From contig CAVTHK010000003.1 in assembly GCA_963734495.1 (NCBI GenBank), positions 256,001 through 320,000 on the forward strand: DNA of 64,000 nt. The letters run 5' to 3'. Origin of the DNA: an uncultured Spirochaetota bacterium. Its GTDB lineage: Bacteria > Spirochaetota > Spirochaetia > SZUA-6 > CAVTHK01. The number at the start of each line of letters is the position of its first letter. Positions within the stretch are counted from its first letter, which is position 1. Below, piece by piece: positions 35,025-53,063 of this stretch. Under the pieces are notes generated by a model that made no database searches, was not told the origin of the DNA, and was given only the letters and a program-made list of their open reading frames with translations. Position numbers and translations under genes: made by a program.

Positions 35025-36726
35025 GCCACGTCTCGTAGAGCTTCTGGATGTCGGGGTTGAGGTGGCTCTTGCGCAGCGTCTTGCCCTCGTCCTCGCGGTA
35101 GATCGCAGCGATGCGGGCCTTGCGCACCTCATCGGTGGTAAAGCGCGGCTGGCCGCCGCCGCCGATGCAGCCGCCGGGGCAGGTCATCACTTCGACAAAG
35201 TGGTACTGGCCGGCGCCGCTCTTGATCCTCTCCATCAGGATCCGGGCGTTTCCCAGGCCGTGGGCGACCGCGGTCCGCAGCTCGACCCCTTCGAGGAAGC
35301 GCCAGTCGGGAAGCGTCCCTTCGAGCCTGATCGCCGCCTCCTTGACCCCCTGCAGCCCCTCGAGCGGCGTGACGTGGAGGCCGCCGACCGGGATCTCGCG
35401 GCCGGTCACCAGCTCGTACGCGGTGCGCAGCGCCGCCTCCATGACTCCGCCGGTATTGGCAAAGATGTCGGCCGCGCCGGTGGAGAGGCCGAGCGGGGCG
35501 TCCATCTGGTCGTCGGGGAGCGAGACGAAATCGATGCCGGCCCCGTCGATCATCTGGGCGAGCTCGCGCGTCGTGAGCACGTAGTCGACGTCCTGCTGGC
35601 CGCTTGCGTTCATCTCGGGCCGCTGCGCCTCGAACTTCTTGGCCGTGCACGGCATGACCGAGACCACGACGATGTCCTCGGCCCGCCTGCCGATCTGCTC
35701 GGCGTAGAAGGTCTTGGCCAGGGCGCCGAACATCTGCTGCGGGCTCTTGCAGGTCGAGAGGTTCGGCAGGTACTCCGGGTAGAAGTGCTCGGTGTACTTG
35801 ATCCAGCCCGGCGAGCAGCTCGTGAACTGGGGGAGAGCCACCGGGCGCTTCTCGACGAGGGCTTTCTTGAGCCTCATCAGGAGCTCGGTGCCCTCCTCGA
35901 CGATCGTGAGGTCGGCCGTGAAGTTGGTGTCGAAGACCTTGGCGAAGCCGAGCCGCCGCAGGGCGGAGACCATCTTGCCGGTGACCAGCGTGCCGGGCGG
36001 GAGCCCGAAGCACTCCCCGAGGGCGGCGCGGATGGCGGGCGCGGTCTGCACGATGACCACCTTCTTCGGGTCCTCCAGGGCGCGGAAGACGCCGTCGGCG
36101 TGGCTGGACTCCACGATCGCGCCGACGGGGCAGACCGCCGCGCACTGCCCGCACTGCACGCAGGCGACGTCGGCGAGGTTCGCCGCAAAGGCGGGCGCCA
36201 CCTGGGTGCGGTAGCCGCGGTACTGCGGGAAGAGGGCGCCCACGCCCTGCACGTCGTTGCACGCGGTCACGCACCGGCGGCACTTGATGCACTTGCCGGA
36301 GTCGCGGGAAAGAGCCGGCGTGCTGCGGTCGAGCCGCACCGCGGCCTTCTCGCCCGTGTAGCGGATGTCGCGAATCCCGAGCTGGTGGGCGAGCGCCTTG
36401 AGCTCGCAGTCCTCGCTCCGGTCGCAGGTCTGGCAGTCGCCTTCGTGCTCCGACAGCAGCAGCTCGACCACCGTGCGGCGCGCGTTGCGGACGCGGCCCG
36501 TGTTGGTGCGCACCTTCATGCCGTCGGAGGCGGGGGTGGCGCAGGCGGCCGAGAGGGTCTTGGCCCCCTCGACCTCCACGACGCACACGCGGCAGGCTCC
36601 GAGGGGCGCGCGCCCCTCGAGGTGGCAGAGGGTGGGGATGTGGACCCCGGCATCCGTGGCAGCCTGGAGGATGGTCGCGCCGGGGGCGACTTTCGTTTCT
36701 CTGTCGTTGATCGTGACGCTAATCAT
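34954..36726 (-). CDS. hydA: [FeFe]-hydrogenase catalytic subunit, group A3 (HydA/HndD-like)
   Basis: N-terminal 2Fe-2S, His-ligated and 2x[4Fe-4S] domains; H-cluster motifs TSCSPGW, MPCTAKKFE, EVMTCPGGCIGGGGQP; C-terminal small-subunit region with LHTHY. Confidence 0.95.
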   Translation of the reverse strand: MISVTINDRETKVAPGATILQAATDAGVHIPTLCHLEGRAPLGACRVCVVEVEGAKTLSAACATPASDGMKVRTNTGRVRNARRTVVELLLSEHEGDCQTCDRSEDCELKALAHQLGIRDIRYTGEKAAVRLDRSTPALSRDSGKCIKCRRCVTACNDVQGVGALFPQYRGYRTQVAPAFAANLADVACVQCGQCAAVCPVGAIVESSHADGVFRALEDPKKVVIVQTAPAIRAALGECFGLPPGTLVTGKMVSALRRLGFAKVFDTNFTADLTIVEEGTELLMRLKKALVEKRPVALPQFTSCSPGWIKYTEHFYPEYLPNLSTCKSPQQMFGALAKTFYAEQIGRRAEDIVVVSVMPCTAKKFEAQRPEMNASGQQDVDYVLTTRELAQMIDGAGIDFVSLPDDQMDAPLGLSTGAADIFANTGGVMEAALRTAYELVTGREIPVGGLHVTPLEGLQGVKEAAIRLEGTLPDWRFLEGVELRTAVAHGLGNARILMERIKSGAGQYHFVEVMTCPGGCIGGGGQPRFTTDEVRKARIAAIYREDEGKTLRKSHLNPDIQKLYETWLKEPLGERSHHLLHTHYAARSRL

Positions 36727-39700
36727 CGGCTGGCTCCTTGGGGTACTGCGGGGGCTGCGTGCGCCGAGGCGGCCGAGCGGCGCGGCCGCGGCGCACCTGC
36801 TCGAGGGTGAGCTCGGGCGGCGTGATCACCGTCTTCCCGAAGTCGCAGCGCAGGCACCGGCACGCCTGCTTGAGCGCCACGGCCTCGTTCCACGGGAGCT
36901 CGACCTCGTCGAAGTTGTGCCTTCGGCGCTCGACGGCGATCGAGGGCATCTTCTCCCTCGGCGTGGCCACCGGGTCGGCCTCGGGGTCGAAGAACGTGTC
37001 CTCCGTCCTCTCCGTGCGCCAGAAGGCGTTGTAGCCTCCGCTCAGGTACAGGTCCATGGCGACCGCGGCGCGTTCGCCCCCGGCGATCGCTTCGACGACC
37101 GACGACGGGCCGCTGGCCGCGTCGCCGCCGGCGAAGACCCAGTCCAGGGACGTCTGGCCGGTGACCGGATCGGCGGAGATGAAGCCGTCGTCGGTGAGCG
37201 CCACCGCCGCCCCGCCGAGGATCTGCCGCGCGTCCAGCCTCTGGCCGATCGCCGCGATCACCTGGTCGGCCTCGACCTCGAGCTCGGCCGCGCTCGCCTT
37301 GGCGCGCCTGCGGCCGCTCCTGTCGAATTCGCCGAGCGACATGGTGACGCAGCGCAGGCCCGTGATCTTCCTGCCGCGGTCGCGCAGGACCGCGACCGGC
37401 TGCGTGAGCGTCATCAGCTCCACGCCTTCCTGCAGCGCCTCGTCGATCTCTTCGGCATACGCCGGCATCTGCTCGCGGGTGCGGCGGTAGAGGACGGTGA
37501 CCTTTTCCGCCCCGAGGCGCAGCGCCGTGCGCGCAGCGTCGATGGCGGCGTTTCCGCCGCCGATGATCGCGACCTTGCGCCCGACTTCGCACGGAGCCGC
37601 GGATGTTGTACTGCTTGAGGAACGGGACGGCCTGGACGACGCCCGGGCCCTCGGCGCCTTCGATGTCGAGCTCGATGCCTTCGGGCGCACCCACCCCGAG
37701 GAAGACGCTCTCGTAGCCCCAGTTCTTGAGGTCGGCGAGGGTAAAGTCGGCGCCGAGCCTTCGGCCGGTCTCGATGTCGACGCCCATGCGCTCGATCATG
37801 CGGATCTCGCGGGCCATGGTCTCGCGGGGCAGGCGGTAGGCGGGGATCGTCTGGGTGAGCATCCCGCCGGGCGCGGATCTCCGCCTCGAAGACCTTGGGC
37901 TTGTAGCCCAGACGGGCGAGGAAGTAGGCGCATGCGAGGCCGCCGCGGCCCCGCGCCCACGATGGCGATCTTGCGCGCGGCGTTCGCCGCGTTCTCCCGC
38001 ACCTCGGGGAGCTGAATGGTCACCTCCTGGTCGACCATGAAGCGCTTGATCGCCGCGGACGGAGACCGGCGCGTCCAGCGACGTGCGGCGGCACTTGTCC
38101 TCGCAGGTGTGGAAACAGACGCGGCCGCAGACGGCGGCGAACGGGTTGCGCTCGCGGTGCAGCTTGAGCGCCTCGGCGTAGCGCTTCTCGGCAACCAGCG
38201 AGACGAAGCCCGGCACGTTGACCCCCGCGGGGCAGGCGCTCTGGCAGGGCGCGCGCACGAGCGAGGGGCAGACGCCCGCTTCGCAGTGGCGGTCCCGGAT
38301 GTGCTGCTCGTACTCGTGGCGGAAGTGCCGTATGGTGGAGAGCACCGGGTTGGGCGCGGTCTGGCCGAGGCCGCAGAGCGCCGTCTCCTTGATCTGCTGG
38401 CCGAGCTCGACCAGCCGGTCGATGTCCTCCATGTGCCCCTTGCCCGCGCAGATCCGCTCGAGGATCTCGAGCATCCGCTTGGTGCCCACGCGGCAGGGGA
38501 CGCACTTGCCGCACGACTCGTCCTGGACGAACTCCAGGAAGAAGCGCGCGACGTCGACCATGCACGTGTCGTCGTCCATGACGATGAGCCCGCCCGAGCC
38601 CATGATCGCACCGAGCTCGGTGAGGGTCTTGTAGTCGAGCGGGACGTTGAGGTGCTCCTTGGAGATGCAGCCGCCCGACGGACCCCCGACCTGGGCGGCT
38701 TTGAAGGTCTTGCTCCCCTTGATGCCGCCGCCCACGTCGTAGATGAGCTCGCCGAGAGGCGTGCCGATCGGGACCTCGACCAGCCCGGTGTTGTTGACCG
38801 CGCCGGCGAGGGCGAAGACCTTGGTGCCCTTGCTGTCCGCGCTGCCCATGGAAGCGTACCAGGCGGCGCCGTTGAGGATGATGGCGGGGACGTTGTTGTA
38901 GGTCTCTACGTTGTTCAGGACGGTCGGCCTGCCGCGCAGGCCCTTCTGCGCCGGGAACGGCGGGCGCGGCCGAGGCTCGCCGCGCTTGCCCTCGATCGAG
39001 GCCATGAGCGCGGTCTCCTCGCCGCAGACAAAGGCGCCGGAGCCCATGCGGATCGCGAGGTCGAAGGAGAAGCCGGTCCCGAGGATGTCCTCGCCGAGGA
39101 GCCCCCGCTCGCGCGCCTGCTTGAGCGCCGCGTCGAGCCGCTCGACCGCGAGCGGGTACTCGGCCCGCACGTAGATGTACCCGCGGCTCGCCCCGATCGC
39201 GAAGGCGCCGATGACCATGCCTTCGATGACGCTGTGGGGGTCGCCCTCGAGGACGCTGCGGTTCATGAACGCGCCAGGGTCGCCTTCGTCGGCGTTGCAG
39301 AGGATGTACTTCTGTCCGTCCTCGGAGGCCGCCTTGCGCGTGAAGTCCCACTTCATCCAGGTGGGGAAACCGGCGCCGCCCCGGCCGCGAAGGCCCGACC
39401 GCTTGATCTCGTCGATGACCGTTTCGGGGGTCATCTGGGAGAGCACCTTGGCGAGGGCCTGGTAGCCGTCGTTGCCGATGTAGTCCTCGATGTCGAGCGG
39501 GTCGATGCGGCCGCAGTTGCGCAGCACCACCTTGGTCTGCCTGCGGAAATACTCCAGGTCCCGCTCGGTGCGCAGCTGGGCGTCGCCGTCGATCATCGTT
39601 TCCAGGACCTCGGGCACCCTGTCCTCGGTGACCCCTTCGAACCAGGCGCCGCTGGGCTGGAAGACCATGACCGGTCCCTTGGCGCACGGCCCGAGGCAGC

Positions 39701-39974
39701 CGGTCTGCACGATGCGGGCCTTGGCGCCGCGCGCCTCGAGCTCCTTTTCGAGCGCGGCCTTGACCTTGAGCGCGCCCGAAGCGAGGCAGCCGCCGCCGGT
39801 GCAGAGCCGGATCTCCATCTCGGCGGCCCGCGCGTCGCGCGCCTCCTGGACTCTCTTGCGGACGGTGTCGAGCTCCTCGATCGAGCCGATCCTGGCGGGC
39901 CCGGCCGTCCGGCTGGTCGCCTGGCCGACCTTGACCTTCACCTTGGTTTCCTTTCCGCCTTCGCCGAACTTCAT
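36719..39974 (-). CDS. hydB: NuoF/HydB-like diaphorase fused to a GltD/NfnB-like FAD oxidoreductase; frameshifts at about 37590-38060
   Basis: Trx-like 2Fe-2S domain, [32 protein letters not shown]; then PCQSACP, CGRVC..CE.KCRR, IPAYRLP, GGGNAAID, YRR, AGGD, CRCLRCD. Confidence 0.88.
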
Positions 39975-40507
39975 GCCTTCTCCTCCCCCTGCTCGGCCTG
40001 GGTGAGCAGCTCGCGCACGCGCGCAGGCTTGACCCGCTGGTGGACCTCGTCGTTGACCATGACGGCGGGGGCGAGGCCGCACGCTCCGAAGCAGCGGCCG
40101 ATCTCGAGCGAGAACTGGCGGTCGGGCGTCGTCTGCCCGACCTCGATGTGCAGCGTGTCCTGAAGGGACTTCAGCACGTCCTTGCCGCCGCGCACGTAGC
40201 AGGCCGTGCCGAGGCAGACCCGCACGAGGTTCTTGCCGCGCGGAACGGTGGAGAAGTAGGAGTAGAAGGTCACCACCCCGGTGACTTCGCTGTAGGGCTT
40301 CTCGAGCCTGAGCGCGATGTGCTTGAGCACGCACGCGGGCAGGTACCCGAGCAGGTCCTGGGCCTTCTGGAGCACGGGGATCAGGGCGCTGTCCGGATCG
40401 GGGAACTCGTCGATGACGCGATCCAGGATCGCCAGCTGTTCGTCGGCGATCCGTTCCGCTTCCTGCGGCGAGGGATTCGCGACTCCGGGATGCACGGCCT
40501 GGCTCAT
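39971..40507 (-). CDS. hydC: NuoE/HydC-like 2Fe-2S subunit
   Basis: LIPVLQKAQ..GYLP, VTFYSYF, CLGTAC, RCFGACGLAP. Confidence 0.93.
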   Translation of the reverse strand: MSQAVHPGVANPSPQEAERIADEQLAILDRVIDEFPDPDSALIPVLQKAQDLLGYLPACVLKHIALRLEKPYSEVTGVVTFYSYFSTVPRGKNLVRVCLGTACYVRGGKDVLKSLQDTLHIEVGQTTPDRQFSLEIGRCFGACGLAPAVMVNDEVHQRVKPARVRELLTQAEQGEEKA

Positions 40508-40579
40508 GAACACCTCCTAAGGCTTCGCGGGGGGCCCCCAGATCGCCTGCCTCACGGCTACCGGGGCCCTTTTCCCCCG

Positions 40580-40760
40580 ACGCATATGGATTTAATGCTC
40601 CACATGCTCATTTATTAGCTGACCTTTACCGATTGAATGTCACAATACTCTATTTAAGAGTGTTATAGCGCGCACAAAAAGCCTTCTTGTCACATCAATG
40701 ATGCCACAGGCCTCTTTGTCGCGCAATCTATCACGTGTTATTGAGAGTGTCAAACATGTT
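40580..40760. promoter_or_regulatory. AT-rich divergent control region between the hyd and hox operons, with degenerate Rex-like boxes
   Basis: Abrupt drop in GC; GTGTTATAGCGCGCACAA (40660-40677), TTGTCACATCAATGATGC (40687-40704) and TCGCGCAATCTATCACGT (40719-40736) partly match TTGTGAA-N4-TTCACAA. Confidence 0.5.
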
Positions 40761-41059
40761 CCATGTCGCGGGGCGCGATGTCCGCGCTCCCGTGGCGTGA
40801 AGAGGAATGATGCGATTCCATGCTGCGCGCTGCGGCCGGAGCGGAGCAATTCGGGGAGAGTCGGGACGCCAAGCGCTGCCGCGGCTGCCTCGGTTTTGCG
40901 ACTTGACGGCGCGCACGGTTGGGATACTCTGGGGACACGACGTGCGTTCGTTGCTGACCGCGGGTGCGCGCAGTGGGATGGCAGCGTGGGCGACGGCACC
41001 TCACTGATCGACAACGGCGCGACCAGGCGATGAACGGCTGAGACGTCATAGGAGGTCGC

Positions 41060-42827
41060 ATGAGCCAGGTCTGGAGCATCGCCGAAGTGACGGCCCGCTA
41101 CGGGCGGGAGCGCGACAGGCTTCTGGACATCCTCCGTGAGGTTCAGGCCGAGCACGGGTTCGTCTCCGACGAGGCCGTGCGTGAGATCGCGCACGCCCTC
41201 GGCATCCACAAAGTCGAGGTGCACGACGCGGCGACGTTCTACAATTTCCTCTCGCGCAAGCCCAAAGGCCGCACGGTCATCCGCCTCGCCAAGGGCGTGG
41301 TGGAGCGGCAGCATGGCCTGGCCGAGGTGGCCGCCGCCTTCGAGCAGGCGGTGGGCGTGCGCTTCGGGGAGACCACCGCGGACGGCGCCATCAGCCTCGA
41401 GTACACGTCCTGCATCGGGATGAGCGACCAGCCGCCCTCGGCGCTCGTGGACGGCCAGGTCGTGGGAAGCATCCGGCCCGAAGAGGTCCCGGGCATGGTG
41501 GCGGAGCTCCGCGAGCACGGGCACCTCGCCCGCTCGCGCGTCGAAACCAACCTGGTGGTCGCAGGGGCGTGCATCTTCGCCCCCATGGAGCGGGGCCGCG
41601 CCATCCGCTCCGCGGTCAACATAACGCCCGACCAGGTGATCGCCGAGCTCAACCGCGCGAGACTGCGCGGGCGCGGCGGGGCCGGGTTCCCGACCGCGAT
41701 GAAGTGGGACTTCTGCCGCAAGGCGCACGGCCGCGCCCACTACATCGTCTGCAACGCCGACGAAGGCGAGCCGGGGACCTTCAAGGACCGCGTGATCTTC
41801 AGCCTGTCGCGCGACCTCGTGATCGAAGGGCATGACGGTCGCCGCCTACGCAATCGGCGCGAGCTTCGGCCTCCTGTACCTGCGCGGCGAGTACGCCTTT
41901 CTCCAGGAGCGCATCGAGGAGGTCCTCGCGCGGCGCAGGCACCAGGGTCTGCTGGGCAATCACATCTGCGGCAAGGAAGGCTTCGACTTCGACATCCGCG
42001 TCCAGATGGGCGCGGGCGCGTACGTCTGCGGCGAGGAGTCGTCGCTGCTGGAGTCCGCGGAGGGCAAGCGCGGCGCCCCGCGCGACCGCCCGCCGTTCCC
42101 CGTGACCAAGGGCTACCTGGGCCAGCCCACGGCCGTCAACAACGCCGAGACGCTCTGCTGCGCGGCGCGGGTGCTGGAAAAGGGGGCCGGCTGGTTCTCC
42201 GGGATCGGCACCAGGGACTCGACGGGCACCAAGCTCTTCAGCGTCTCCGGCGACTGCACGGCGCCCGGCGTCTACGAGCTGCAGTTCGGGCACGAGCGTC
42301 AACAAGCTGCTCGAGATGGTCGGCGCCGAGGACGTGCAGGCCGTGCAGGTCGGCGGGCCGTCGGGCGCCTGCGTCGCGCCCAAGGACTTCGGCCGCAGGC
42401 TCTGCTTCGAGGACCTGGCGACCGGCGGCTCCGTCATGGTGTTCGGCAAGGACCGGGACCTGCTGCAGGCCGTGCGCGACTTCACCGAGTTCTTCGTCGA
42501 GGAGTCGTGCGGCTGGTGCGCCCCCTGCCGCGCCGGCACGACGCTGCTGCTGCGCATGCTCGAGCGGATCCAGGAGGGGCGGGCCACCCGCGCGGACCTG
42601 CACCAGATGGAAGACCTCGCCGCCACGGTGCAGGCACTGCAGCCGCTGCGGCCTGGGGCAGACCGCGCCCAACCCGTTCGTGACGACGCTGCGCAACTTC
42701 CCGGAGCTGTACCAGGCGCGCCTCGCGCCCCGAGGAGTACGTGCCCGCGCTCCGCCTGGAGGAGGCGCTCGCGGCGGGCGAGCGCGCCGCGGGCCGGCGC
42801 GCCGCGACCAGGGAGGCCGGCGAATGA
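41060..42827 (+). CDS. hoxF: NAD-reducing [NiFe]-hydrogenase diaphorase large subunit (NuoE-NuoF fusion); frameshifted
   Basis: [60 protein letters not shown]. Confidence 0.9.
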
Positions 42828-43539
42828 ACACCAAGGTCACCTTCGTGCTGGACGGCCGCGACGTCGAGGCCAAGCCGGGCCAGACGATCCTGGAGGCGGC
42901 GGACGCCGCGGGCATCTACATCCCGCGGCTGTGCTACCACGAGGACCTGCGTGCCCGGCGGCCACTGCCGGATCTGCTCGGTCAAGGTCAACGGGAAGGT
43001 CACCAACGCGTGCACCATGCCCGTCATGGACGGGATGGTGGTCGAGAAGCGACACGCCGGAGCTGACCGCTCACCGCAAGCGGATCGTCGAGATGCTCTT
43101 CGTGGAGGGCAATCACTTCTGCCCCATCTGCGAGAAGAGCGGCAGCTGCGAGCTGCAGGCGCTGGCGTACCGGTTCGGGATGACGGCGCCGACCTACCCG
43201 TACCTGCCGCGGCTCCGCGGCGGTGGACGCGAGCGCACCCCGACGTGTTCATCGACCGCAACCGCTGCGTGCTGTGCGGCCGGTGCGTGCGCGCCTCGCG
43301 CGACCGCGACCACAAGGGCGCTGTTCGGCTTCGAGGGCCGGGGCGTCTGCGCATGCGGGTCGTCGTGGATTCGCTCGACGGCCTCGGCGGCACGGCCCTG
43401 GTGCGCGAGGACGCGGCCGCCGCCATCTGCCCGACGGGCAGCATCGTCGTGAAGCGCGTCGGCTACGCGACGCCGTACGGCAGGCGGCACGTACGACAAG
43501 GCGCCGATCGGCTCGGAGATCGAGAAGAAGGGGTCCTGA
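42824..43539 (+). CDS. hoxU: NAD-reducing hydrogenase diaphorase small subunit; frameshifted
   Basis: [45 protein letters not shown]. Confidence 0.9.
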
Positions 43540-43591
43540 GGCCGGCCGACGGCGCGACCGGCCCTGAGGCCGCACGAAAAGGGGGAACAGC

Positions 43592-44136
43592 ATGGCGGGC
43601 AAGCCCAAAGTCGCGACGTGTGCTCTGACGGGCTGCTTCGGGTGCCACATGTCGCTGCTGGACATCGACGAGCGCATCCTCGATCTGATCGAGCTCGTCG
43701 ATTTCGACAAGTCGCCGATCGACGACATCAAGGAGCTCACGGGTCCCGTCGACATCGGGATCATCGAGGGAGGCGTGTCCACCGAGGAGAACGTCGAGGT
43801 GCTGCGCTCGTTCCGCGAGCACTGCAAGGTGCTCGTGGCCATCGGCGAGTGCGCGCTCACGGGCGGCGTCCCGTCGATGCGCAACCTCGTGCCGCCTGCA
43901 GGAGTGCCTCGAGGAGGCGTACCTGAAGGGGCCGACGGTCGTCGACGGCCGGATCCCCGACGACCCGTCGCTTCCGCGTGATCCTCGACAGGGTCTATCC
44001 CTGCCACGAGGTGGTCAAGATCGACTACCTCCTTCCGGGCTGTCCTCCGTCGGCCGACGTGCTCTGGACGGCGCTCTCGGCCCTGCTCAAGGGCGAGGAG
44101 CCGAAGCTGAGCTACGAGCTGATCAAGTACGACTGA
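43592..44136 (+). CDS. hoxY: [NiFe]-hydrogenase small subunit, group 3d; frameshifted
   Basis: GCFGCHMSLLD, GECA..GG.P, LPGCPP. Confidence 0.92.
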
Positions 44137-44150
44137 AGGGAGGCGCGCTC

Positions 44151-45633
44151 ATGAAGACCAACGGCAACGGCAAGCACAAGGGCACGGCGGGCGCGCAGGC
44201 CACCCGGAAGATCGTCATCAACCCCGTCACGCGCGTCGAGGGGCACGGCAAGGTCACCATCCATCTCGACGCGAAGGGCGGCATCGACCAGGCCCGGTTC
44301 CACGTCGTCGAGTTCCGCGGGTTCGAGCGCTTCGTGCGCGGCCGGCTGTACTGGGAGGTGCCGGTCATCGTCCAGCGGCTCTGCGGCATCTGCCCGGTGA
44401 GCCACCTCCTGGCCGCGGCCAAGGCGATGGACGTCATCGTCGGCGCCGACCGGCTCACGCCGACCGCGGAAAAGATGCGGCGGCTGATGCACTACGGCCA
44501 GATCTACCAGTCGCACGCCCTGCACTTCTTCCACCTCGCGTCGCCCGACCTCCTGTTCGGCTTCGACGCGCCGCCGGCGACGCGCAACGTGATCGGCGTC
44601 GCGCGCGAGCACCCCGAGATCGCGACGAAGGCCGTGCTGATGCGCAAGTTCGGCCAGGAGATCATCAAGGCCACCGCGGGAAAGAAGATCCACGGCAACG
44701 GCGCGATCCCCGGCGGGATCAACAAGAACCTCTCGATCGAGGAGCGGGACATGCTCGCCGGCGGCATCGACGACGATGCTCGCCTGGGCGGTCGAGGGGC
44801 TCGAGCTCTACAAGGGGCTGTACACGCAAGGACATCGACGCGGCTCGCCTCGTTCGGGAGCTTCGAGAGCAATTTCGTGAGCATCGTGCGCGACGACGGG
44901 GCCTCGACCTCTACGACGGTCTGCTGCGGGCCAAGGATCCCGACGGCAAGATCATCTTCGACAAGGTGCAAGGCCGCCGACTACCTGGACGTGATCGCCG
45001 AGGAGGTGCGCGGCTGGAGCTACATGAAGTTCCCGTTCATCCGGCCCCTCGGCAAGGAGAAGGGGTGGTACCGCGTCGGACCGCTGGCGCGCATGAACAA
45101 CTGCGACCGCATCGACACGCCGATCGCGGAGGCGGAGCGCAAGGAGTTCCTCGCGCTCGGAGGGAGGCCGCCCGGTCCACTCGACGATGGCCTACCACTG
45201 GGCGCGCCTGATCGAGCTGGTTCACTGCGCGGAGAAGATGAAGGAGCTGCTCGCGGACCCCGACCTCCAGGGGACGGACCTGGTGACGAGCGGCGAGCGG
45301 CGCGGCCGCGGGGTCGGCTGGATCGAGGCGCCGCGCGGCACGCTGTTCCATCACTACGAGGTCGACGATCACGACCAGGTGACGATGGCGAACCTGATCG
45401 TGTCGACGACCAACAACAACGAGCCCATGAACCAGGCGGTGCGCGCGGTCGCGCGAGACCACCTCGCCGGGAAGGCCGAGATCACCGAGGGCCTGCTGAA
45501 CGCGATCGAGGTCGCCATCCGGGCCTACGATCCGTGCCTGAGCTGCGCGACGCACGCGGTCGGCCGCATGCCGCTCGAGGTCGTGCTGCTCGGCTGCGAC
45601 GGGCGGGAGATCTCGCGCGGGAGCAAGGGGTGA
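44151..45633 (+). CDS. hoxH: [NiFe]-hydrogenase large subunit, group 3d; frameshifted
   Basis: TRVEGHGK, RGFE, L1 QRLCGICPVSH, EAPRGTL.H, L2 DPCLSCATH with a cleavable C-terminal tail. Confidence 0.94.
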
Positions 45634-46185
45634 GCGGGAGGGCCGGCCGCTCGGTCCTGGTCGTCGGCGTCGGCAACCCCGGCCGGGGCGACGACGGGAT
45701 CGGGCCCGCCCTGGTCGAGCGCCTGGAGGCGCGACGCCGTGCCCGGGCTCGCGCTGGAGTCGGCCTTTCAGCTCTCGCTCGAGCACGCGGCCGCGGTCGG
45801 CGGAGCATCCGACGGTGCTGTTCGTCGACGCGGCCGTCGGCACCGCTGTCGGCCGCGCGGCCGTTCGCGCTGCTGCCGATCGCCCCGGGCGACGGCGCCG
45901 TCACCGGCATCAGCACGCACGCGATGGCGCCCGCGGACGTGCTGGCGGTCTCGCGGCTCGCGTTCGGCGCCGGCGCCGGACGCGTGGCTGCTCGCGGTGC
46001 GGGGCCGCGACTTTCGCGAACGCGAGGGGCTGAGCGCGCGCGGCCCGCCGCAACCTGGCGCGGGCCCTCGAGGCCGCCCGGGCGTTCATCGCCTCGGCGC
46101 TGGATCGCGGCGCGGACCTCCGGTGCCGGACGAAGCGACGAGACGACGGCCGGCGCAAGTCCGACAGGGTGCTGGGGAGGAGTGA
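45630..46185 (+). CDS. hoxW: Hydrogenase maturation protease; several frameshifts, end approximate
   Basis: VVGVGNPGRGDDGIGP, FQL..E, LFVDA, STH. Confidence 0.82.
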
Positions 46186-46188
46186 AAG

Positions 46189-46567
46189 ATGACCGATCGG
46201 AAGACCATCCTGATCATCGACGATGACGCGGACATCCGGGCCTCCATCCGGATGGTGCTCGAGGCCGCGGGGTTCTCCGTAGGCGAGGCGGGAAGCGCCG
46301 ACGAAGGGCGCCAAGATCGCCCCGAGGATCTCGCCCGACGCCATCATCGTCGACCTGATGATGGAGAGCGTCGACTCGGGGGTGCAGCTCTCGCAGTCCC
46401 TCAAGGAAAGCGGCTACGCCGGCCCCATGTACCTGCTGAGCTCGGCGGGCGACTCCGTGCGCTTCAACCTGGACCCGCGCGAGCTCGGCCTGGCCGGCAT
46501 CTTCCAGAAGCCGATCCAGCACGACCTGCTCGTGCGCACCCTCAAGTCGAAGCTGCACGTCCCGTAG
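46189..46567 (+). CDS. Single-domain response regulator (receiver only); frameshift near 46310
   Basis: ILIIDDD, IVDLMM (phospho-Asp), LLSS, QKP. Confidence 0.85.
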
Positions 46568-46601
46568 GCCGGGCCCGCCGGGTCATCGCGCCCCGCTCGG
46601 C

Positions 46602-48107
46602 TCAGGCCTCGGCGCAGGGCAGCGTGACGACGAACGTGCTCCCGCGGTCCGGCGCCGAGTCCACCGAGATCGTGCCGTTGTACTCGTCGAGCACCCTCCG
46701 CACGGTGGCGAGGCCGAGGCCCGTCCCGGGGATGCCCTGCGTCTTCGGGCCGCGAGCCCTGTAGAAGTCCTGGAAGAGGTTGGACACCTCCTCCTGCGTC
46801 ATGCCGATGCCCGTGTCCTGCGAAGCGCGATCTCCCAGCCGCCGCCGAGCCGCTCCTGCCGCTGCGGACCGAGACCGTGAGGCTGCCGCCTTCGCGGTTG
46901 TACTTGATGCCGTTGGAGATCAGGTTCATGAAGATGCGGTCGAGGTCGCCGCGGTCGGCGACGCACGCGCGCCTCGTCGGGCGCCTCGAGGCTCAGGCGC
47001 GATCCCGCGCTTTTCCGCCTGCACGCGGAAGAACTCCAGCTGCTCGTCGAGGACCTGCCGCAGGTCGAGCCCCTGCGCCGACCGCTCGACCTTGCGCGCC
47101 TCGCGACTGCGCAGGAACTGCAGGTCCTTCACGAGGTCCAGCAGCGCTTCGGCGCGCGCCTTGCTCCGCGCCATGATCTCCTTGATCCGCTCGGGCTCCC
47201 GTCGAGCGTGCCCGCGAGCACGACGTCGATGTAGCTGACGATCGCGGCCAGCGGGCTGGTGAGCTCGTGCGCGACCATGGAGACGAAGCGGTTGCGGTCC
47301 TGCTCGGCTTCCCACTCGTCGGTGACGTCGCTGCAGCAGCAGGATCAGCCCCGCGGTCTCCCTCGCCGCGGATGTACGGCGCCGCGTTCAGCTCGAGCCT
47401 GCGGCCCCGGAGCTCGAGCCGCAGCCGCCGGAAGCGGCCGGCCGCCGGCCCGCGCGGCGAGCAGCGTCCTCGACGACGGCCGGTGACCGCGGCGTCGAGG
47501 CCGAGCTCCTCGAGGGCCAGGTCCTCGCGGTAGCGGACGCCGAGCAGCGAACTCGGCCCGCGGGTTCATCAGCACCGGCTTGCGGTTGATGTTGAGCACG
47601 ATCACCCCTTCGCGCATCGAGTTGATGAGCTGGCGCGAGAGGTTGCGCTCGCTGTTGAGCGCGGACAGGTAGGTCTCCCGCTCGCCGGATGAGCCGGCAC
47701 TGCCGCGCCCGCCCGCTCGACGACCTGCAGCAGCTCGTCGGGCGCCGAACGGCTTGACCAGGAAGTCGAAGGCGCCGTGGCGGGTGACCTCGACCGCGGC
47801 CTCGACGGTGGCCAGCGCCGAGACGATGACGACGACCGTCGCGGCCGCTCTCGTTGATGCGCCTCGGTCACCTCGAAGCCGTCGATCCCGGGCATCTTGA
47901 GGTCGACGAGGGCGACGTCGAAGGTCCCGCCCGGCGAGCCGCACCAGCGCCTCGCCGCCGTCCGCGGCCGCGACGACGGAGTGACCCTGGCGCTCGAGGA
48001 TGCGGCGCATGCCCTCGCGCATGCCCTCCTCGTCGTCGACGACCAGGATGCTGAGGGCGCCGCCTCGGAGGACGCTGTCGCGGGGTCGGTCCGACGACCG
48101 CGCTCAC
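46602..48107 (-). CDS. Hybrid kinase REC-PAS-HisKA-HATPase; many frameshifts
   Basis: ILVVDDEE, VDLKMPG.DG, DFLVKPF, NSMREGVIVL..MNP (PAS), VAHELTSPL, NLISNGIKYN, DTGIGM, GTGLGL. Confidence 0.82.
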
Positions 48108-50230
48108 GGCGCGGACCTCTCCGCGCCGACGGCCGCGCCGGCGCCGGCGCCGGGTCCCGCAGCCCGATCTCGAAGCAGGCGCCGCCCTCGGGGCGATTGC
48201 CGCCGCGGATCCAGCCGCCGTGCATCTTGACGATCCCGTAGCAGACCGAGAGGCCCAGTCCCGTGCCCTTGCCGACCGGCTTGGTCGTGTAGAAAGGCGT
48301 GAACAGGTGCTCGAGGACGCCTCTCGGGGATGCCCGGCCCCGTGTCGGACACCGAGACGGTGAACTCCCCGTCGCCCTCCTGCGGTCTCGATCCGGATGC
48401 GTCCCGCCCCCGGGCATCGCCTCGATCGCGTTCTTGATGATGTTGTCGAAGACCTGCCGCAGCTGCGACGAGTCGACGCTGTGAGCCTTCATGCCGTCGT
48501 CGAGGTCGAGCTCGACGCGCACCCGTCCCGCGGGGTCGAGGGCGCGGGCACGGCCCGGGCCGCTTCGCGGACCAGCGCGTTGATGTCGGTCTGCTGACGG
48601 TCGATCTTCTTCTCGCGCGCGAAGTTCAGGATGCCCTGCACGATCGAGCGGGCGCGCTCGGACTCGCGGATGATGCGGTCCGCGTCCGCCGAGCCCCTGC
48701 CCGCTCGCCGCCTTCGGCGAGCTCCTCCCGCAGGAGGTGCGCGTACATGAGCACGACGCCGAGCGGGTTGTTGATCTCGTGGGCGATGCCCGCGGCCATC
48801 TGGCCCATGGAGGCGAGCTTCTCGGCCTGGATCAGGCGGCTCTGGTTCTCCTTGAGGTCCGTGATCGTCGTCCTCGAGCCGCGAGATGAGGTAGGGCAGG
48901 CACATCTCGACCTCGGCGATGCCGCGGTAGACGGCCACCGCCTTCTCCCGGCAGGAGTCGTAGCCGCAGGCGCGGCAGTTCAGCTCGTCCTCGGGGACGC
49001 ACCTTGCCGGTGCTGGCGAGGATCTTGCGGATGTCCTCCTCGGGCACCGGCGCCTCGCGGGTCTTGGATCTGCGCGAACGTCTTGGGGAGGTCGAGCGTC
49101 GAGGTAGCGGGTGTTGGCGGCCGCCCACTCCTCGATGTCGCTGATCAGCGGGACTGCGCTTCATGTAGTCGACGATGTACTTCTTGCGCTCGTAGAAGGT
49201 GAGGTCGTTGGGCATCGCGGGCCCGCCGATGCACCCTTCGCAGAACAGCAGGTCGAAGAGCCTGGTCACCACGGGCCGGCGCTTGCGCACGATCCGGCCG
49301 AGGACTGGAGCAGCTCCGTGACCCGGGCGCTTCCCTCGACGATCATCACCGGGCTCTCCAGCAGGTCGTCGTCGATGGCGGCCGCCTTGAGCAGCCCGCC
49401 GGTGACCGGGTAGATCTGGCCGAGGTTGGCGTGCGGCGGATCGAAATCGCGCGGCGCCGCGGCCTGCGGATCGACGCCGAGGTCCGCGAACAGCTCGATC
49501 AGCTCCTCGAAGGTGAGCACCTCGTCCACGAGGCCGAGTCCGCCGCGCCTCGTCCTTCTTCGCGACGCACGGCCCGATGAAGACGATCGGCGGGAGGCTC
49601 CGCGCCGGTCGGGCGTGAGGCGCTCGCGGATCACGCGCGGCCATCGCCTCCATCGGCGAAACGACGTCGCGCGAGGTGCGGCACGAGCTCGGGGCAGATC
49701 TTCTCCACGTACGAGACGACCGCGGGGCAGGGCGAGCTGATGACGAAGGCCGGCCGACCGGCGGCCGGTCTCATCGCGCACGAGCTGCCCGAATCGCCGG
49801 CGATACTCGTAGGAGACCAGGTCCGCGCCGAAAGCCACCTCGTAGCACGCGGCTGAACCCGCAGGCGGCGACCGCGCCGACGAGGCGCTCGGGCTTGACG
49901 TCGAGGAAGGCGGCGGGAAAGGAGGGCGCGATCATGGCGCAGCACGGCCTGCCCGGAGCGCAGGAGGCGCTCGACCTCGGCGACCGACGAGCGGATCTGC
50001 TTGGCGCCCTGGGAGCACATCGGGACGCAGTAGCCGCAGGAGATGCACTTGGAGGCGATGATCTCGGCCTGGCCGCCGTGCACCTCGATCGCCTTGGTCG
50101 GGCAGGTCCGCACGCAGGAGTAGCACTTCCTGCACTTTTCGGCAGCCGTCAGGACCGCGAGAGAATCACCGGCTGCCTGGCCGTAGCGAGCCCTGCCCGC
50201 GGGCCGCTGCGGTCCCGGAAGTGCCTCCAT
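48104..50230 (-). CDS. Sensory [FeFe]-hydrogenase-like protein fused to a histidine kinase (group C1-like); many frameshifts
   Basis: 2x[4Fe-4S] ([23 protein letters not shown]); H-cluster-like [28 protein letters not shown]; FeS domain [40 protein letters not shown]. Confidence 0.85.
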
Positions 50231-50289
50231 CAGGCCCATGATAGCATGCCCGGCTCCCTTGTCCACCGCACTGTCCGCCCTGCCCGTCG

Positions 50290-51021
50290 AACGGATGACC
50301 GGTCACCAGCGCCGCCGCCGTGCCGCCGGAGACGAAGACGTCGGCCCGCAGCGGAAGGCCGCGGTGGAACAGCCTGTGGAAGCCGTCCGGGATCCGCGCG
50401 AGCGCGCGGCCATTCGACGCGAGCGCCGCTGCCGCGGCCGAGGCGGGGATCCACTCGCCCGCGGGAAGCTCGAGCGCCACCTCCCGGCGCTCCGCCTCCG
50501 CTCAGGTCGGTGACGCGCAGGCCGCCCGAGAGGATGCTCTCCGCGAGTCGCGCCGTGTCCAGGTGCCACGGGTCTTCGAGGCGGAGGGCGTCGACGGCCT
50601 CCAGGAGGCGGCTCGTGTTCAGCTCCTCGAGGCGGTACCCGGCTGCGGAGAGGCTGAGGAGGCAGGCTGCCAGGGGCCCCCTCCGCCACGACAGCGCGAG
50701 CGGCGAGCTCTCGCCCTCGCAGATGCCCGCCCGCCGGCAGCAGCTCGACGCCCGCGTGCACCGGGAACGCGAGCACGGGCGTCGGCGCCGCCGCGGGAGC
50801 TCGACGGAGGCGTCCGCGGGCCACGACGGCAGGCGTTCGGCGCGCACGGGACCTCCCGGCTCGCTCCAGACGATCCGGCAGGCGAGGCCGGGGAACCGCG
50901 CCCGCCACGAGTCGGGAGGCTCGGGCAGCAGCAGCCGCTGGGGCCGCGGCGGCAGGTCGCATGCCAGGCATCCCGCGGCCAGCAGCGCGGCGCAGCCGGC
51001 CGCCCGCAGTCGTCGCCTCAT
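50290..51021 (-). CDS. Hypothetical lipoprotein; frameshifted, 3' end approximate
   Basis: MRRRLRAAGCAALLAAGCLAC signal/lipobox; protein-like segments alternate between frames. Confidence 0.5.
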
Positions 51022-51068
51022 GCACGAGACAATGGGGCCGGCGCCCGCGGCGCGTGGCGTCCCCGGCC

Positions 51069-51601
51069 TCAGCCTGCCGATTCGCGAAGCTGCTCCCTCA
51101 GCCGCGCGCGGATGCGCTCGAGCACCGCGAGGGTGCGCGGGCTGCGGTAGTCGGGGTAGGTCCAGGGCAGGGGCCGGAAGCCGCCCTTCTCATACTTCAA
51201 TGTGAGCTCGGCATAGATGCCGTCGCGGAGGGGGATGCGGTGGGCGCTTTCCTTGGTCGTGGCCAGCGAGAAGCGGGCCAGCGTCAGCAGCCCCGGGTCG
51301 AGGTTGAAGGTGCGCCGGCCCGATTCCGCGAGCCCGGCCTCGAGCACGTTGGTCTCGAGCTTGATGGCCGCGAGCGAATCCGGGCTGACGAGCCGCTCGA
51401 AGGAGAGGAACCAGCGCGACAAAGGGCTTCCCATTTCCTGATCGTAGTAATCGGTAAAGGTGAAGGCGTCGGGCTCGCTTTCCACGTCGACCGGGCCGAA
51501 GAGGGCCTCGAGCCTCTCTGCGCCGAGCCGCGCCGCTCGGGGCGGCTCGCGATCACCGCGACGACGAGCTTGGCCGGGGGGAAAGGGCGGGGGATTCCCA
51601 T
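51069..51601 (-). CDS. DUF4416-family protein; frameshift near 51520
   Basis: MGIP...KLVVAV; FGPVD..S..F.FTDYY..EMG, LAAIKLETN.LE, RR.FNLDPG, LATTK..HRI, PWTYPDY. Confidence 0.8.
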
Positions 51602-51653
51602 GGCTGTTTGCGAGATTCCCTCCGGGCGGAGGATAGCCTATAATGGTGCGCTG

Positions 51654-53039
51654 ATGGAAGAAACGGGATCCTGGACGCAGCAGATGCAGACCGCGGTCGA
51701 AGGGCTTCGGGCCGAGCTGGAGTCGAGCGACCTGCCGAGGCTCCGCAAGGCGATCGCGGTCTACAAGACCACCTTCGACAACGTCTATCAGATGCTGGTG
51801 CGCAAGTCGCTGATCAAGGCGGACTTGTACGGCTACGACAGCGGTCCCAAGAAGCTGGAGGCTCCCGCCGACGAGCCCATCCTCGAATCCCAGAAGATAG
51901 AGCAGGCGGGCATGCGGCTGGCCGCCTACGGGGCCCAGATCAACCTGCTGGCAACGTCGCTGCAGCCGACGCTCGACTGGCTCGTCCTCTCCAGGCTGCC
52001 GGCGCTGGCCAACCTGGCGCAGTACATCCGGTGGGCGAACCTGACCCAGGGTTCCGACAGCCCGATCACGCAGGTCGTCGCCGAGTTCATCGATCGGATC
52101 AAGGCGCACAGCGACATGATGTCGGGCCGCGTCGCCGCGACGAACGTGGGCCAGCTGGGCCGGCTCTCCCGGGAGATGGTCCGGACGGTCGAAAGGGTGG
52201 CGGTCTATCAGCGCGAGGCCTACAAGTCGATGCTCCGCCGGGATGTGGCGCCGGCGGTCGGCGCCGAGGGGACCGAGGAGCAGAAGCTTGCGCGGGCCAG
52301 GAAGGTCTTCGCGACCGCGCTCAAGGGAAAGGCGTTCTACCCGGAGCTGTTGAAGGAAGTGCTCGCCGAGGATTCGCCGGCGGGAGGCGAGGCGCGCGCC
52401 GCGGCCCTGGCGCGCCTCTCGAGCCTGCTGCAGAACGAAGGGCCGACCCCCTCCTCCAACGACAGGGTCAGCCTCATGCAGGCGGTGCGCGCTCTGGCCG
52501 CGGCCGCTTCGCCGCTGGCCGACTGCGTCGTCAAGATCGCCGAGATCGACCAGGCGGCGCGGAAGGAACGGGAGCCGAAGGGGCTGCGGGCGCTCCTGAG
52601 GCGCCTCCGGCACGCGAAGCCCGAGACGCCCGCCTACCGGATCGAGTATCTCGACGGCGCGGTCATGCGCGCGGAGACGATCGCGATCGACGCCTTCCTC
52701 GACGAGGTGACCAGGCAGTCGCGGCTGCTGGCCGCCCTCACGAGGCGGGACGGCCCGACCGCGGACCGGTTGCGGCGCGCCGGCGACAGGAGCCTGACCG
52801 AGTTCCTCGACCGGCAGCTCGCGACGCTGCAGATCATGCACCGCCGGCTCGCGGGTCTCTCCGACCTGTTCCGCAAGCAGACGCCGGCGGCTCCCGCAGG
52901 CGCGTCGGACGCCCCGGTCAAGGGGATCAAGATCGAGCTCACGGTGCTGAGGAACTGCCTGATCCGATCGAACCGGCTCAGGCACGCCTACGCGGGGGCG
53001 CCGGAAGAACGCGACAAGGCGAAGAGCGCCGGCGCCTGA
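51654..53039 (+). CDS. Conserved hypothetical alpha-helical protein
   Basis: Intact 461-aa ORF with protein-like composition; TATAAT at 51639-51644. Confidence 0.75.
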   Translation: MEETGSWTQQMQTAVEGLRAELESSDLPRLRKAIAVYKTTFDNVYQMLVRKSLIKADLYGYDSGPKKLEAPADEPILESQKIEQAGMRLAAYGAQINLLATSLQPTLDWLVLSRLPALANLAQYIRWANLTQGSDSPITQVVAEFIDRIKAHSDMMSGRVAATNVGQLGRLSREMVRTVERVAVYQREAYKSMLRRDVAPAVGAEGTEEQKLARARKVFATALKGKAFYPELLKEVLAEDSPAGGEARAAALARLSSLLQNEGPTPSSNDRVSLMQAVRALAAAASPLADCVVKIAEIDQAARKEREPKGLRALLRRLRHAKPETPAYRIEYLDGAVMRAETIAIDAFLDEVTRQSRLLAALTRRDGPTADRLRRAGDRSLTEFLDRQLATLQIMHRRLAGLSDLFRKQTPAAPAGASDAPVKGIKIELTVLRNCLIRSNRLRHAYAGAPEERDKAKSAGA

Positions 53040-53063
53040 CCGGGGCTGCCCGCCCGCCGGCCC

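Follow-up and report, generated by a model that had tools for sequence, protein, structure and literature searches.

We analysed a stretch of 64,000 nucleotides (nt), hereafter the window, from the genome assembly of an uncultured Spirochaetota bacterium (GCA_963734495.1, called G000 here). The window corresponds to C3:256001-320000 of this assembly, which consists of 18 contigs with 5.38 Mb and is rated 83% complete, and its G+C content is 68-70%. At 48104..50230 on the minus strand it carries the gene of a [FeFe]-hydrogenase homologue of group C type fused to a kinase, ~700 amino acids (aa) long after correction of 19 frameshifts, which we refer to as the sensor. A genome of the same genus that is 99% complete (G001) was used for comparison, and sensor residues such as C170 and H483 are numbered after its intact 699-aa orthologue; all residues named for that orthologue were identical in the frame-corrected window copy. 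On the basis of its motifs and architecture, the sensor is assigned to the putative sensory [FeFe]-hydrogenases of group C type, in a fusion with a histidine kinase. We consider it probable that the product of the locus is a soluble histidine kinase that receives its input from a slowed-down [FeFe]-hydrogenase module, and that it is encoded in one intact gene, the breaks in the deposited sequence being assembly errors.

The original prediction had treated the sensor as a single open reading frame (ORF). No single ORF spanned 48104-50230 under genetic code table 11, which was used for the ORF calls, and for the deposited sequence this claim was refuted; the earlier reading had evidently passed over the frame changes without remark. 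The domains were spread over three minus-strand frames, with SSPCP and AHEINNPL in frame 0 and GPCVAKKDE and the L3 motif in frame 1, and the Fe_hyd_lg_C match was divided among three stop-to-stop pieces (21.7, 28.0 and 24.0 bits). Frameshifts were counted by aligning the G001 protein with the window DNA by frameshift-aware dynamic programming in two implementations. Nineteen were needed for the sensor, 16 with an extra base and 3 with a missing base, or 17 and 2 in the slightly different second implementation. The frame-corrected sequence aligned with the G001 protein over 694 codons (48124-50224), of which 549 were identical (79%) and none was an in-frame stop, and the ratio of nonsynonymous to synonymous substitution (dN/dS, Nei-Gojobori method, NG86) was 0.23 at a dS of 0.64. 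An ATG at 50230 and a stop near 48104 are plausible ends of the gene, the last ~20 nt requiring one further shift beyond the 19.

The orthologue in G001 was one ORF with the full architecture (L011:15997-18096, minus strand). Full-length matches of the sensor were found in three further relatives, and the G028 locus was one long ORF. The earlier claim that the H-domain and the kinase reside in one gene was thus true of the intact orthologues, and all 120 homologues listed (59-100% identical) carried both, with matches to PF02906, PF04060, HisKA and HATPase_c. The named homologues among the matches listed came from metagenome-assembled Spirochaetia and Rectinemataceae genomes. In the organism, the sensor is almost certainly one intact gene of ~700 codons.

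Pfam scans of the stop-to-stop pieces gave the order Fer4 (twice), Fe_hyd_lg_C, FeS (PF04060), HisKA and HATPase_c, in agreement with the predicted architecture; the features described next all lie on the minus strand. The ferredoxin-type [4Fe-4S] motif CxxCxxCxxxCP occurs twice at 49985..50146, where residues 53-106 of the piece 49631-50302 matched Fer4, Fer4_10 and Fer4_7; in the G001 orthologue the two motifs are in residues 26-77. The H-domain extended over three frames at 49219..49953 (residues 93-338 in the orthologue), and motif search located its three H-cluster motifs, L1 SSPCP at 49724-49738, L2 GPCVAKKDE at 49549-49575 and L3 FCEGC at 49219-49251. It was followed by the four-cysteine motif Cx2Cx4Cx16C at 48894..48983 (PF04060, E = 2e-10), a putative extra [4Fe-4S] cluster, by the H-box AHEINNPL with the phospho-accepting histidine H483 at 48761..48784 (recognized by Pfam, motif search and invariance), and by HATPase_c at 48157..48474 (PF02518, E = 1.9e-14, in the piece 47602-48831), in which the N, G1, F and G2 boxes were all present. 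The four motifs quoted in the original prediction were all at the positions claimed, and those that it had quoted for the neighbouring HydA (TSCSP, MPCTAKKFE and VMTCPGGC) were found within 35167-35823 and share one frame. We also considered whether a small-molecule domain such as PAS links the cluster domain to the kinase, and rejected this: the Pfam scan of the orthologue gave no PAS match, and neither the scan nor the structure model contained any such domain.

Profile comparison placed the input domain with the [FeFe]-hydrogenase H-domains. The orthologue matched PF02906 with 135 bits (E = 4e-39, profile positions 3-245), and hhalign aligned the sensor H-domain with the HydA alignment at a probability of 99.85%. 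Motif search and profile alignment confirmed the described differences from the HydA of the window. In L1, which reads I-S-S-P-C-P, the cysteine pairs with the second cysteine of TSCCP in Thermotoga maritima HydA, and the proline pairs with the first cysteine of TSCCP and with the cysteine of TSCSP in the window HydA. The first cysteine of TSCCP is the proton-relay residue, as judged from the title of the structure 8bj8 (C178A variant of the Desulfovibrio desulfuricans enzyme) and from the alignment count; by alignment, this residue (C299 of CpI) is absent from the sensor. M353 is replaced by glycine in L2 (GPC versus MPC) and M497 by leucine in L3 (DLLFC versus EVMTC), so the reported loss of the methionines and alteration of the first motif were both borne out, the latter as a change of the relay cysteine to proline.

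Residue invariance was scored in 25 homologues of 60-86% identity. The four cluster-ligand cysteines C170, C222, C331 and C334, which pair with cysteines of HydA and of the T. maritima enzyme (TmHydA), were invariant in 25/25, and so were K225, E228 and A98-P99-S100. The cysteines C418, C421, C426 and C443, with the exact Cx2Cx4Cx16C spacing, were likewise invariant in all 25. In the kinase, H483, N594/N598, D626/G628/G630, F640/P642/F643 and G650-G656 were invariant, and all are readable in the window copy. Judged from these residues, the H-cluster site of the sensor looks competent.

An AlphaFold2 model of the monomer had a mean predicted local distance difference test score (pLDDT) of 74.8, with most of the H-domain above 85. 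Its N-terminal 430 residues superposed on solved [FeFe]-hydrogenases (CbA5H and TmHydA, E ~1e-17), and its C-terminal 230-250 residues superposed on the kinase cores of ZraS, YF1-type proteins and HK853 (Foldseek E ~1e-16). By sequence, the kinase core was closest to FixL-derived chimeras and ZraS among solved structures (E = 5e-33 to 5e-31). In the model, the two parts were connected by one unbroken helix (residues 444-504) that begins right after C443 and passes H483.

The frame breaks of the sensor belonged to a larger patch. The coding frame was tracked with a hidden Markov model of the phase of third-position G+C (GC3), since in this G+C-rich genome the coding frame shows as a third-position G+C above 0.9. 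The signal changed frame every 100-300 nt within ~41.8-51.6 kb and was steady on both sides. This tracking and the frameshift-aware alignments delimited an indel-error patch at 41829..51606, with 61 frameshifts across ten consecutive genes on both strands (41033-53042), 53 with an extra base and 8 with a missing base. The shifted genes were those of the [NiFe]-hydrogenase operon, the lone receiver, the hybrid kinase and the sensor, together with three that encode a putative lipoprotein, a DUF4416 protein and a 593-aa protein. No shift was found in the four flanking genes tested, which encode HydA, HydC, a DAHP synthase-prephenate dehydratase and a GGDEF protein. In-frame stops in the patch numbered only 3 in ~3,300 aligned codons, and the GC3 of its conserved genes was 0.93-0.97. 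Their dN/dS was 0.19-0.35, slightly higher than the 0.16-0.25 of the flanks; as a test of decay, dN/dS is not decisive on its own.

Similar patches were present elsewhere in the assembly. Frame switches were comparably dense in 51 of 1083 5-kb bins, on 13 of the 18 contigs, including stretches at C15:93000-96000 (L150:4000-7000), C10:88000-97000 and C3:108000-116000. Six other dense patches, of which 73 fragments were scanned, held housekeeping genes: elongation factor P (EF-P), a class II aminoacyl-tRNA synthetase, MurJ, tRNA-guanine transglycosylase, LptF/G, FtsH, ribosomal proteins L21 and L27, aconitase and exonuclease VII. The ftsH gene on C15 had 8 frameshifts, all of the extra-base type, no stop, and 93.6% identity over 579 aa to the intact FtsH of the congener, and therefore it cannot be a decayed gene.

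A further comparison came from public sequencing runs. None was found that holds the window stretch; the best share of its words was 0.06-0.07, in four wetland or peat metagenome runs (X1-X4) from three studies, which yielded short contigs of relatives. Of the 32 pieces listed (of 9,769), 25 fell inside the patch and 7 outside; the contigs were gapped relative to the window in 19 of the former and in none of the latter, and base 48868, flagged as extra by the alignment, was missing from relatives' contigs of three runs. Because the patch spans ten genes, is biased toward extra bases and has counterparts in which FtsH, MurJ and aconitase are likewise broken, we attribute the frameshifts to assembly errors; the case that the 19 breaks in the sensor are assembly indel errors and not gene decay is strong but indirect. 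Programmed frameshifting and an alternative genetic code were also considered as causes and rejected, as the shifts were irregular, went in both directions and affected unrelated genes on both strands. The estimated completeness of 83% may in part be due to such patches. Local insertion-error patches mimic pseudogenes, so any broken gene of this assembly needs comparison with a relative, and the deposited sensor sequence is unusable unless corrected. The short contigs from X1-X4 were 95-99% identical to parts of window positions 40000-53000; close relatives therefore inhabit wetland and peat.

Next after the sensor, at 46595..48097 on the minus strand, lies the gene of a 500-aa hybrid kinase with the order receiver (REC), PAS, HisKA and HATPase, with 15 frameshifts. 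In G001, its start overlaps the stop of the sensor gene by 4 nt. From this arrangement, the REC-PAS-kinase is the likely phosphotransfer partner of the sensor. Convergent with this pair, in both G000 and G001, is a lone receiver on the plus strand at 46183..46564 (127 aa in G001; Response_reg, E = 4e-17 on L011:14118-14501), which is the last gene of a NAD-linked-type [NiFe]-hydrogenase operon at 41033..46140 on the same strand. The operon was annotated by Pfam on the G001 orthologues (42824-43571 excluded), contained 18 frameshifts, and encodes a NuoE/F-like diaphorase fusion, a small subunit, a large subunit and a 160-aa protein. No DNA-binding regulator, NtrC-type or other, that could serve as output of the relay was found among the 23 window ORFs scanned. 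In both G000 and G001, the sensor gene is immediately preceded on its strand by the genes of a 245-aa protein and of the DUF4416 protein (50289..51782 in the window); the 245-aa protein had no Pfam family and, from the reading of its N-terminus, looks like a lipoprotein.

The other hydrogenase genes of the window are all on the minus strand: an intact hydA (34954-36726) whose product has TSCSPGW as its L1, hydB (36719-40334), which is NuoF-GltD-like, and hydC (39971-40513), which is NuoE-like. HydB contains a fused GltD-like module (Fer4_20 and pyridine-nucleotide-disulfide oxidoreductase domains), and the reading frame of its gene shifts near 37590 and probably again at ~37900-38050, outside the main error patch. 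The sensor and HydA were the only two H-domain genes in G000; they are ~12 kb apart, with another operon in between. A feoB gene and a DtxR-type repressor gene lie beyond hydA. Between hydC and the [NiFe] operon, G001 has a 6.3-kb block (L011:2642-8927) with HypD and ORFs of 367, 804 and 137 aa, which the window lacks at 40507-40891. HypD was not found anywhere in G000, and the gap may reflect either a true deletion or a collapse of the assembly. In the relatives G019, G022, G016 and G012 (L019, L020, L021 and L026), a second, paralogous sensor type adjoins hydA and carries the motifs GPCIAKK and FCEGCINGP or CCEGCVMGP; G022 has both this paralogue and an orthologue of the window sensor.

With one genome taken per species, relatives of the sensor were found in at least 582 genome stretches. 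The best 80 of these came from Spirochaetota, Acidobacteriota, Planctomycetota, Bacteroidota, Actinomycetota, Armatimonadota, Chloroflexota, Myxococcota, Hydrogenedentota, Melainabacteria, Elusimicrobia, Calditrichota and others, and they were also used for the neighbourhood counts. Within flanks of 8 kb, HydA was encoded in 64/80 loci, HydB in 61/80 and a [NiFe] large subunit in 4/80, the last including the closest spirochaete loci. HydA was directly upstream on the same strand in 38 of the 67 loci with room for it. Of the 64 loci with at least 2.5 kb downstream, 61 had a REC...HK homologue 3' of the sensor in the same orientation; it followed directly in 18 of them and after a gap of 437-892 nt, room for one small gene, in 43. 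These neighbour counts indicate that the usual layout is hydCBA-sensor-(small gene)-REC-PAS-kinase. The layout in the window is a minority one, linked to the [NiFe] hydrogenase and common to the closest spirochaete relatives.

These features can be combined into a working mechanism. Hydrogen would react at an H-cluster that lacks the relay cysteine and both methionines, so turnover would be slow and the redox state of the cluster would follow H2. Electrons would equilibrate with the accessory clusters, including the putative [4Fe-4S] cluster of the C-terminal Cx2Cx4Cx16C motif. The last cysteine of this motif starts the long helix in the model, and the phospho-accepting histidine would follow 40 residues on; a change in the redox state of the C-terminal cluster might thus alter the packing of the helices in the dimer and, with it, the rate of autophosphorylation. 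The phosphoryl group would pass to the receiver of the downstream REC-PAS-kinase and possibly onward to the lone receiver that ends the [NiFe] operon, where it could tune the expression or activity of that hydrogenase.

Several observations weigh against the reading as a hydrogenase-gated kinase in one intact gene. No kinase-fused member is known to have been characterised, so the dependence on H2, the function of the C-terminal cluster and the path of phosphotransfer are all inferred. The L3 motif DLLFCEGC has a CxxC spacing, one residue shorter than the CxxxC (CPGGC) of catalytic enzymes, and standard H-cluster signatures are hard to detect in the group C1 proteins of Hydrogenedentota, according to an extract of PMC11406978. 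Confidence in the linker helix was low (pLDDT 45-60), as is expected of a monomer model of a dimeric coiled coil. The small share of words in the best public runs keeps the artefact reading of the frame breaks indirect. The missing maturases also count against a hydrogenase-gated kinase. HydE, HydF and HydG were searched for with profiles in G000, G001 and a sample of 41 genomes of the order, with T. maritima and Bacteroides thetaiotaomicron as controls, both of which scored above the cut-off. HydE and HydG had no match in G000 or G001; for HydF, G000 gave GTPase-domain matches only (at most 83 bits against a cut-off of 326 bits) and G001 had no match at E <= 1e-40. Incomplete assembly may be the cause of the missing maturases in G000. 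H-domain genes were present in 26 of the 41 sampled genomes and maturases in only five, and 21 of the 26 had none. In these five (G017, G028, G029, G035 and G038), all three maturases co-occurred in clusters, with the HydF of G035 at 302 bits, under the cut-off. Fifteen of the 18 genomes with a sensor-type H-domain, grouped by score alone (105-178 bits), lacked all three. Detection as such works, because HydG was above the cut-off in all five sensor-bearing genomes from other lineages, lying within ~5 kb of the sensor in three of them. As no HydE, HydF or HydG was found in G000 or G001, the assembly of the H-cluster here is unexplained, a specific difficulty in this organism for the control of autophosphorylation by the H-cluster redox state that the original prediction had proposed.

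The window HydA has its own peculiarity at the H-cluster: at 35809-35823 (minus strand), TSCSPGW has serine in place of the second TSCCP cysteine of the T. maritima and D. desulfuricans proteins, a residue that we take, from the CpI and DdH structures, to be a ligand of [4Fe-4S]H. In the sample of the order, HydA copies with TSCSP or SSCSP numbered 18 in maturase-less genomes versus 0 of 6 copies in maturase-bearing ones, although the genomes are related and these counts are not independent; 11 copies in maturase-less genomes had the canonical TSCCP. A serine variant of this motif has been recorded (PMC3787301), and an extract of PMC11406978 describes serine at this position as common in four of five BfuA sub-types.

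The missing maturases favour a different view of the sensor, namely that its H-domain binds [4Fe-4S] clusters only, without the [2Fe] subsite, and that a chain of four or five clusters reports the reduction of a ferredoxin- or NADH-linked partner to the kinase. Hydrogenase-like proteins of this kind exist in the eukaryotic Nar1/NARFL family, which has [4Fe-4S] clusters without the [2Fe] subsite. The lack of HydE, HydF and HydG in G000 and even in the 99%-complete G001, and the corresponding lack in most order genomes with a sensor-type H-domain, are as expected for such a redox sensor, and the two N-terminal clusters and the C-terminal one are conserved equally with the H-cluster site. However, the residues that serve only the [2Fe] subsite (the lysine of GPCVAKK, the APS triplet and the second cysteine of L3) were invariant in the 25 homologues, this genus included, and in other lineages the family sits beside hydG. 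The maturase gap also concerns every hydrogenase of these genomes and not the sensor in particular, because the canonical TSCCP HydA occur there too. Moreover, according to the extract of PMC11216029, 125 of 130 archaeal genomes show hydrogenase without maturases, and another maturation pathway is proposed there for archaea and some eukaryotes without HydEFG. We therefore judge an Fe-S redox sensor to be unlikely, although it deserves to be taken seriously. It is possible, and we say so tentatively, that this genus and most of its hydrogenase-bearing relatives in the order combine H-cluster sites that are fully conserved in both HydA and the sensor kinase with the absence of HydEFG, either through a second bacterial route to the [2Fe] subsite or because the protein is a cofactor-less Fe-S redox sensor. 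The absence of HydEFG is the only unusual lead at this locus and merits a proper survey.

The fragmented state of the gene could alternatively mean that the [NiFe] operon and the sensor form a genuine pseudogene cluster, decayed after the loss of hyp maturation genes. Two observations lend this some weight against our preferred reading: the hypD-bearing 6.3-kb block is missing right beside the patch and HypD is nowhere in G000, and the shifts in this region are limited to ~10 kb round the hydrogenase and sensor genes. The patch, however, also covers unrelated genes (those of the DUF4416 and 593-aa proteins), and the same insertion-biased shifts affect FtsH and fall in patches elsewhere that hold MurJ, the class II aminoacyl-tRNA synthetase, EF-P and aconitase; similarly dense bins occur on 13 contigs. 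Bacterial gene decay is usually deletion-biased, and the excess of extra over missing bases is the opposite of that bias; the rarity of in-frame stops and the match of GC3 and dN/dS with the flanks point the same way, so we regard decay as very improbable. Hardly any credence remains for the sensor as a structural or catalytic subunit of a hydrogenase complex, the 'T subunit' of a BfuABC-T assembly, with the kinase-like domain in another role. The treatment of bfuT as part of the bfuABC cluster (extract of PMC11406978) and the frequent position of HydA directly upstream on the same strand suit this notion, but neither the H-box histidine nor any of the ATP-binding boxes varies, nearly all loci with room have a receiver-containing gene next, the proton-relay cysteine is lost, and the window sensor lies far from hydA beyond another operon. 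The soluble histidine kinase with a slowed-down hydrogenase as input thus remains the reading that we favour.

The kinase-linked subgroup is not new; it is catalogued in HydDB (PMC5037454) and described in PMC11406978. By the extracts of these sources, group C1 of the [FeFe]-hydrogenases in HydDB is 'histidine kinase-linked (putative)', HATPase_c occurs in group C1 proteins of Hydrogenedentota, and a histidine-kinase domain is found in one C3 type, the 'BfuT' encoded in sub-type V clusters, a form that Calditrichota and Bacteroidota also have (PMC11406978, 2024). Kinase-bearing forms have accordingly been assigned to both C1 and C3 in that paper, and an extract of PMC6052044 lists genes of both groups for the spirochaete Rectinema cohabitans. 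The sensory enzymes studied biochemically in the extracts of PMC8163306 and PMC8924675 are TmHydS and TamHydS, neither of which is kinase-fused. A search of the full-text literature (supplements excluded) found no biochemical study of a kinase-fused form, in line with the statement in the original prediction that this subgroup has little or no such characterisation. The window sensor is an ordinary member of this known and widespread class, a putative hydrogen sensor, and the window copy adds little beyond existing surveys. The class itself is often encountered among anaerobes from wetland, sediment and gut habitats, where it adjoins enzymes that make or use H2. Kinase-fused sensors would be the most direct test of whether 'sensory' [FeFe]-hydrogenases sense H2, because input and output are in one soluble protein and are joined by one helix.

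Among known systems, the kinase-fused C1 and BfuT forms have the same architecture and presumed role as the sensor. They differ in genomic setting: the family is usually beside HydABC/BfuABC, whereas the window sensor is paired with a [NiFe] operon, as in 4/80 loci, and does not follow just after hydA. The sensor shares with TmHydS of T. maritima (group C, M2f), a characterised enzyme and putative H2 sensor, by the description in the extract of PMC8163306, the two N-terminal [4Fe-4S] clusters, the loss of the relay cysteine, the replacement of M353 by glycine, and Cx2Cx4Cx16C, which is the extra C-terminal cluster motif of M2e/M2f enzymes. TmHydS, however, ends in a PAS domain, signals via separate proteins and has serine for M497, while the sensor continues directly into HisKA/HATPase and has leucine; group C as usually defined (M2f) has PAS after the C-terminal cluster, and the sensor has none. 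TamHydS of Thermoanaerobacter mathranii (group D, M2e) resembles the sensor in having no PAS domain, a C-terminal four-cysteine cluster and leucine for M497. Its kinase-like protein is encoded by a separate gene and its M353 is replaced by serine, as against glycine in the sensor (TmHydS Gly/Ser and TamHydS Ser/Leu at M353/M497; extract of PMC8163306).

The presumed logic of the sensor has parallels in other proteins. In the regulatory [NiFe]-hydrogenase HoxBC with its kinase HoxJ (HydDB group 2b, extract of PMC5037454), a hydrogenase of low activity passes the H2 signal to a histidine kinase, which in turn governs hydrogenase genes, but the metal site and fold are unrelated, and sensor and kinase are separate proteins. 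FixL/YF1 and ZraS share with the sensor the H-box HE(I/L)N(N/Q)PL and an input joined by a continuous helix to the dimerization and histidine phosphotransfer domain. In those kinases the input is a haem-PAS, LOV or periplasmic domain, whereas in the sensor it is a hydrogenase domain.

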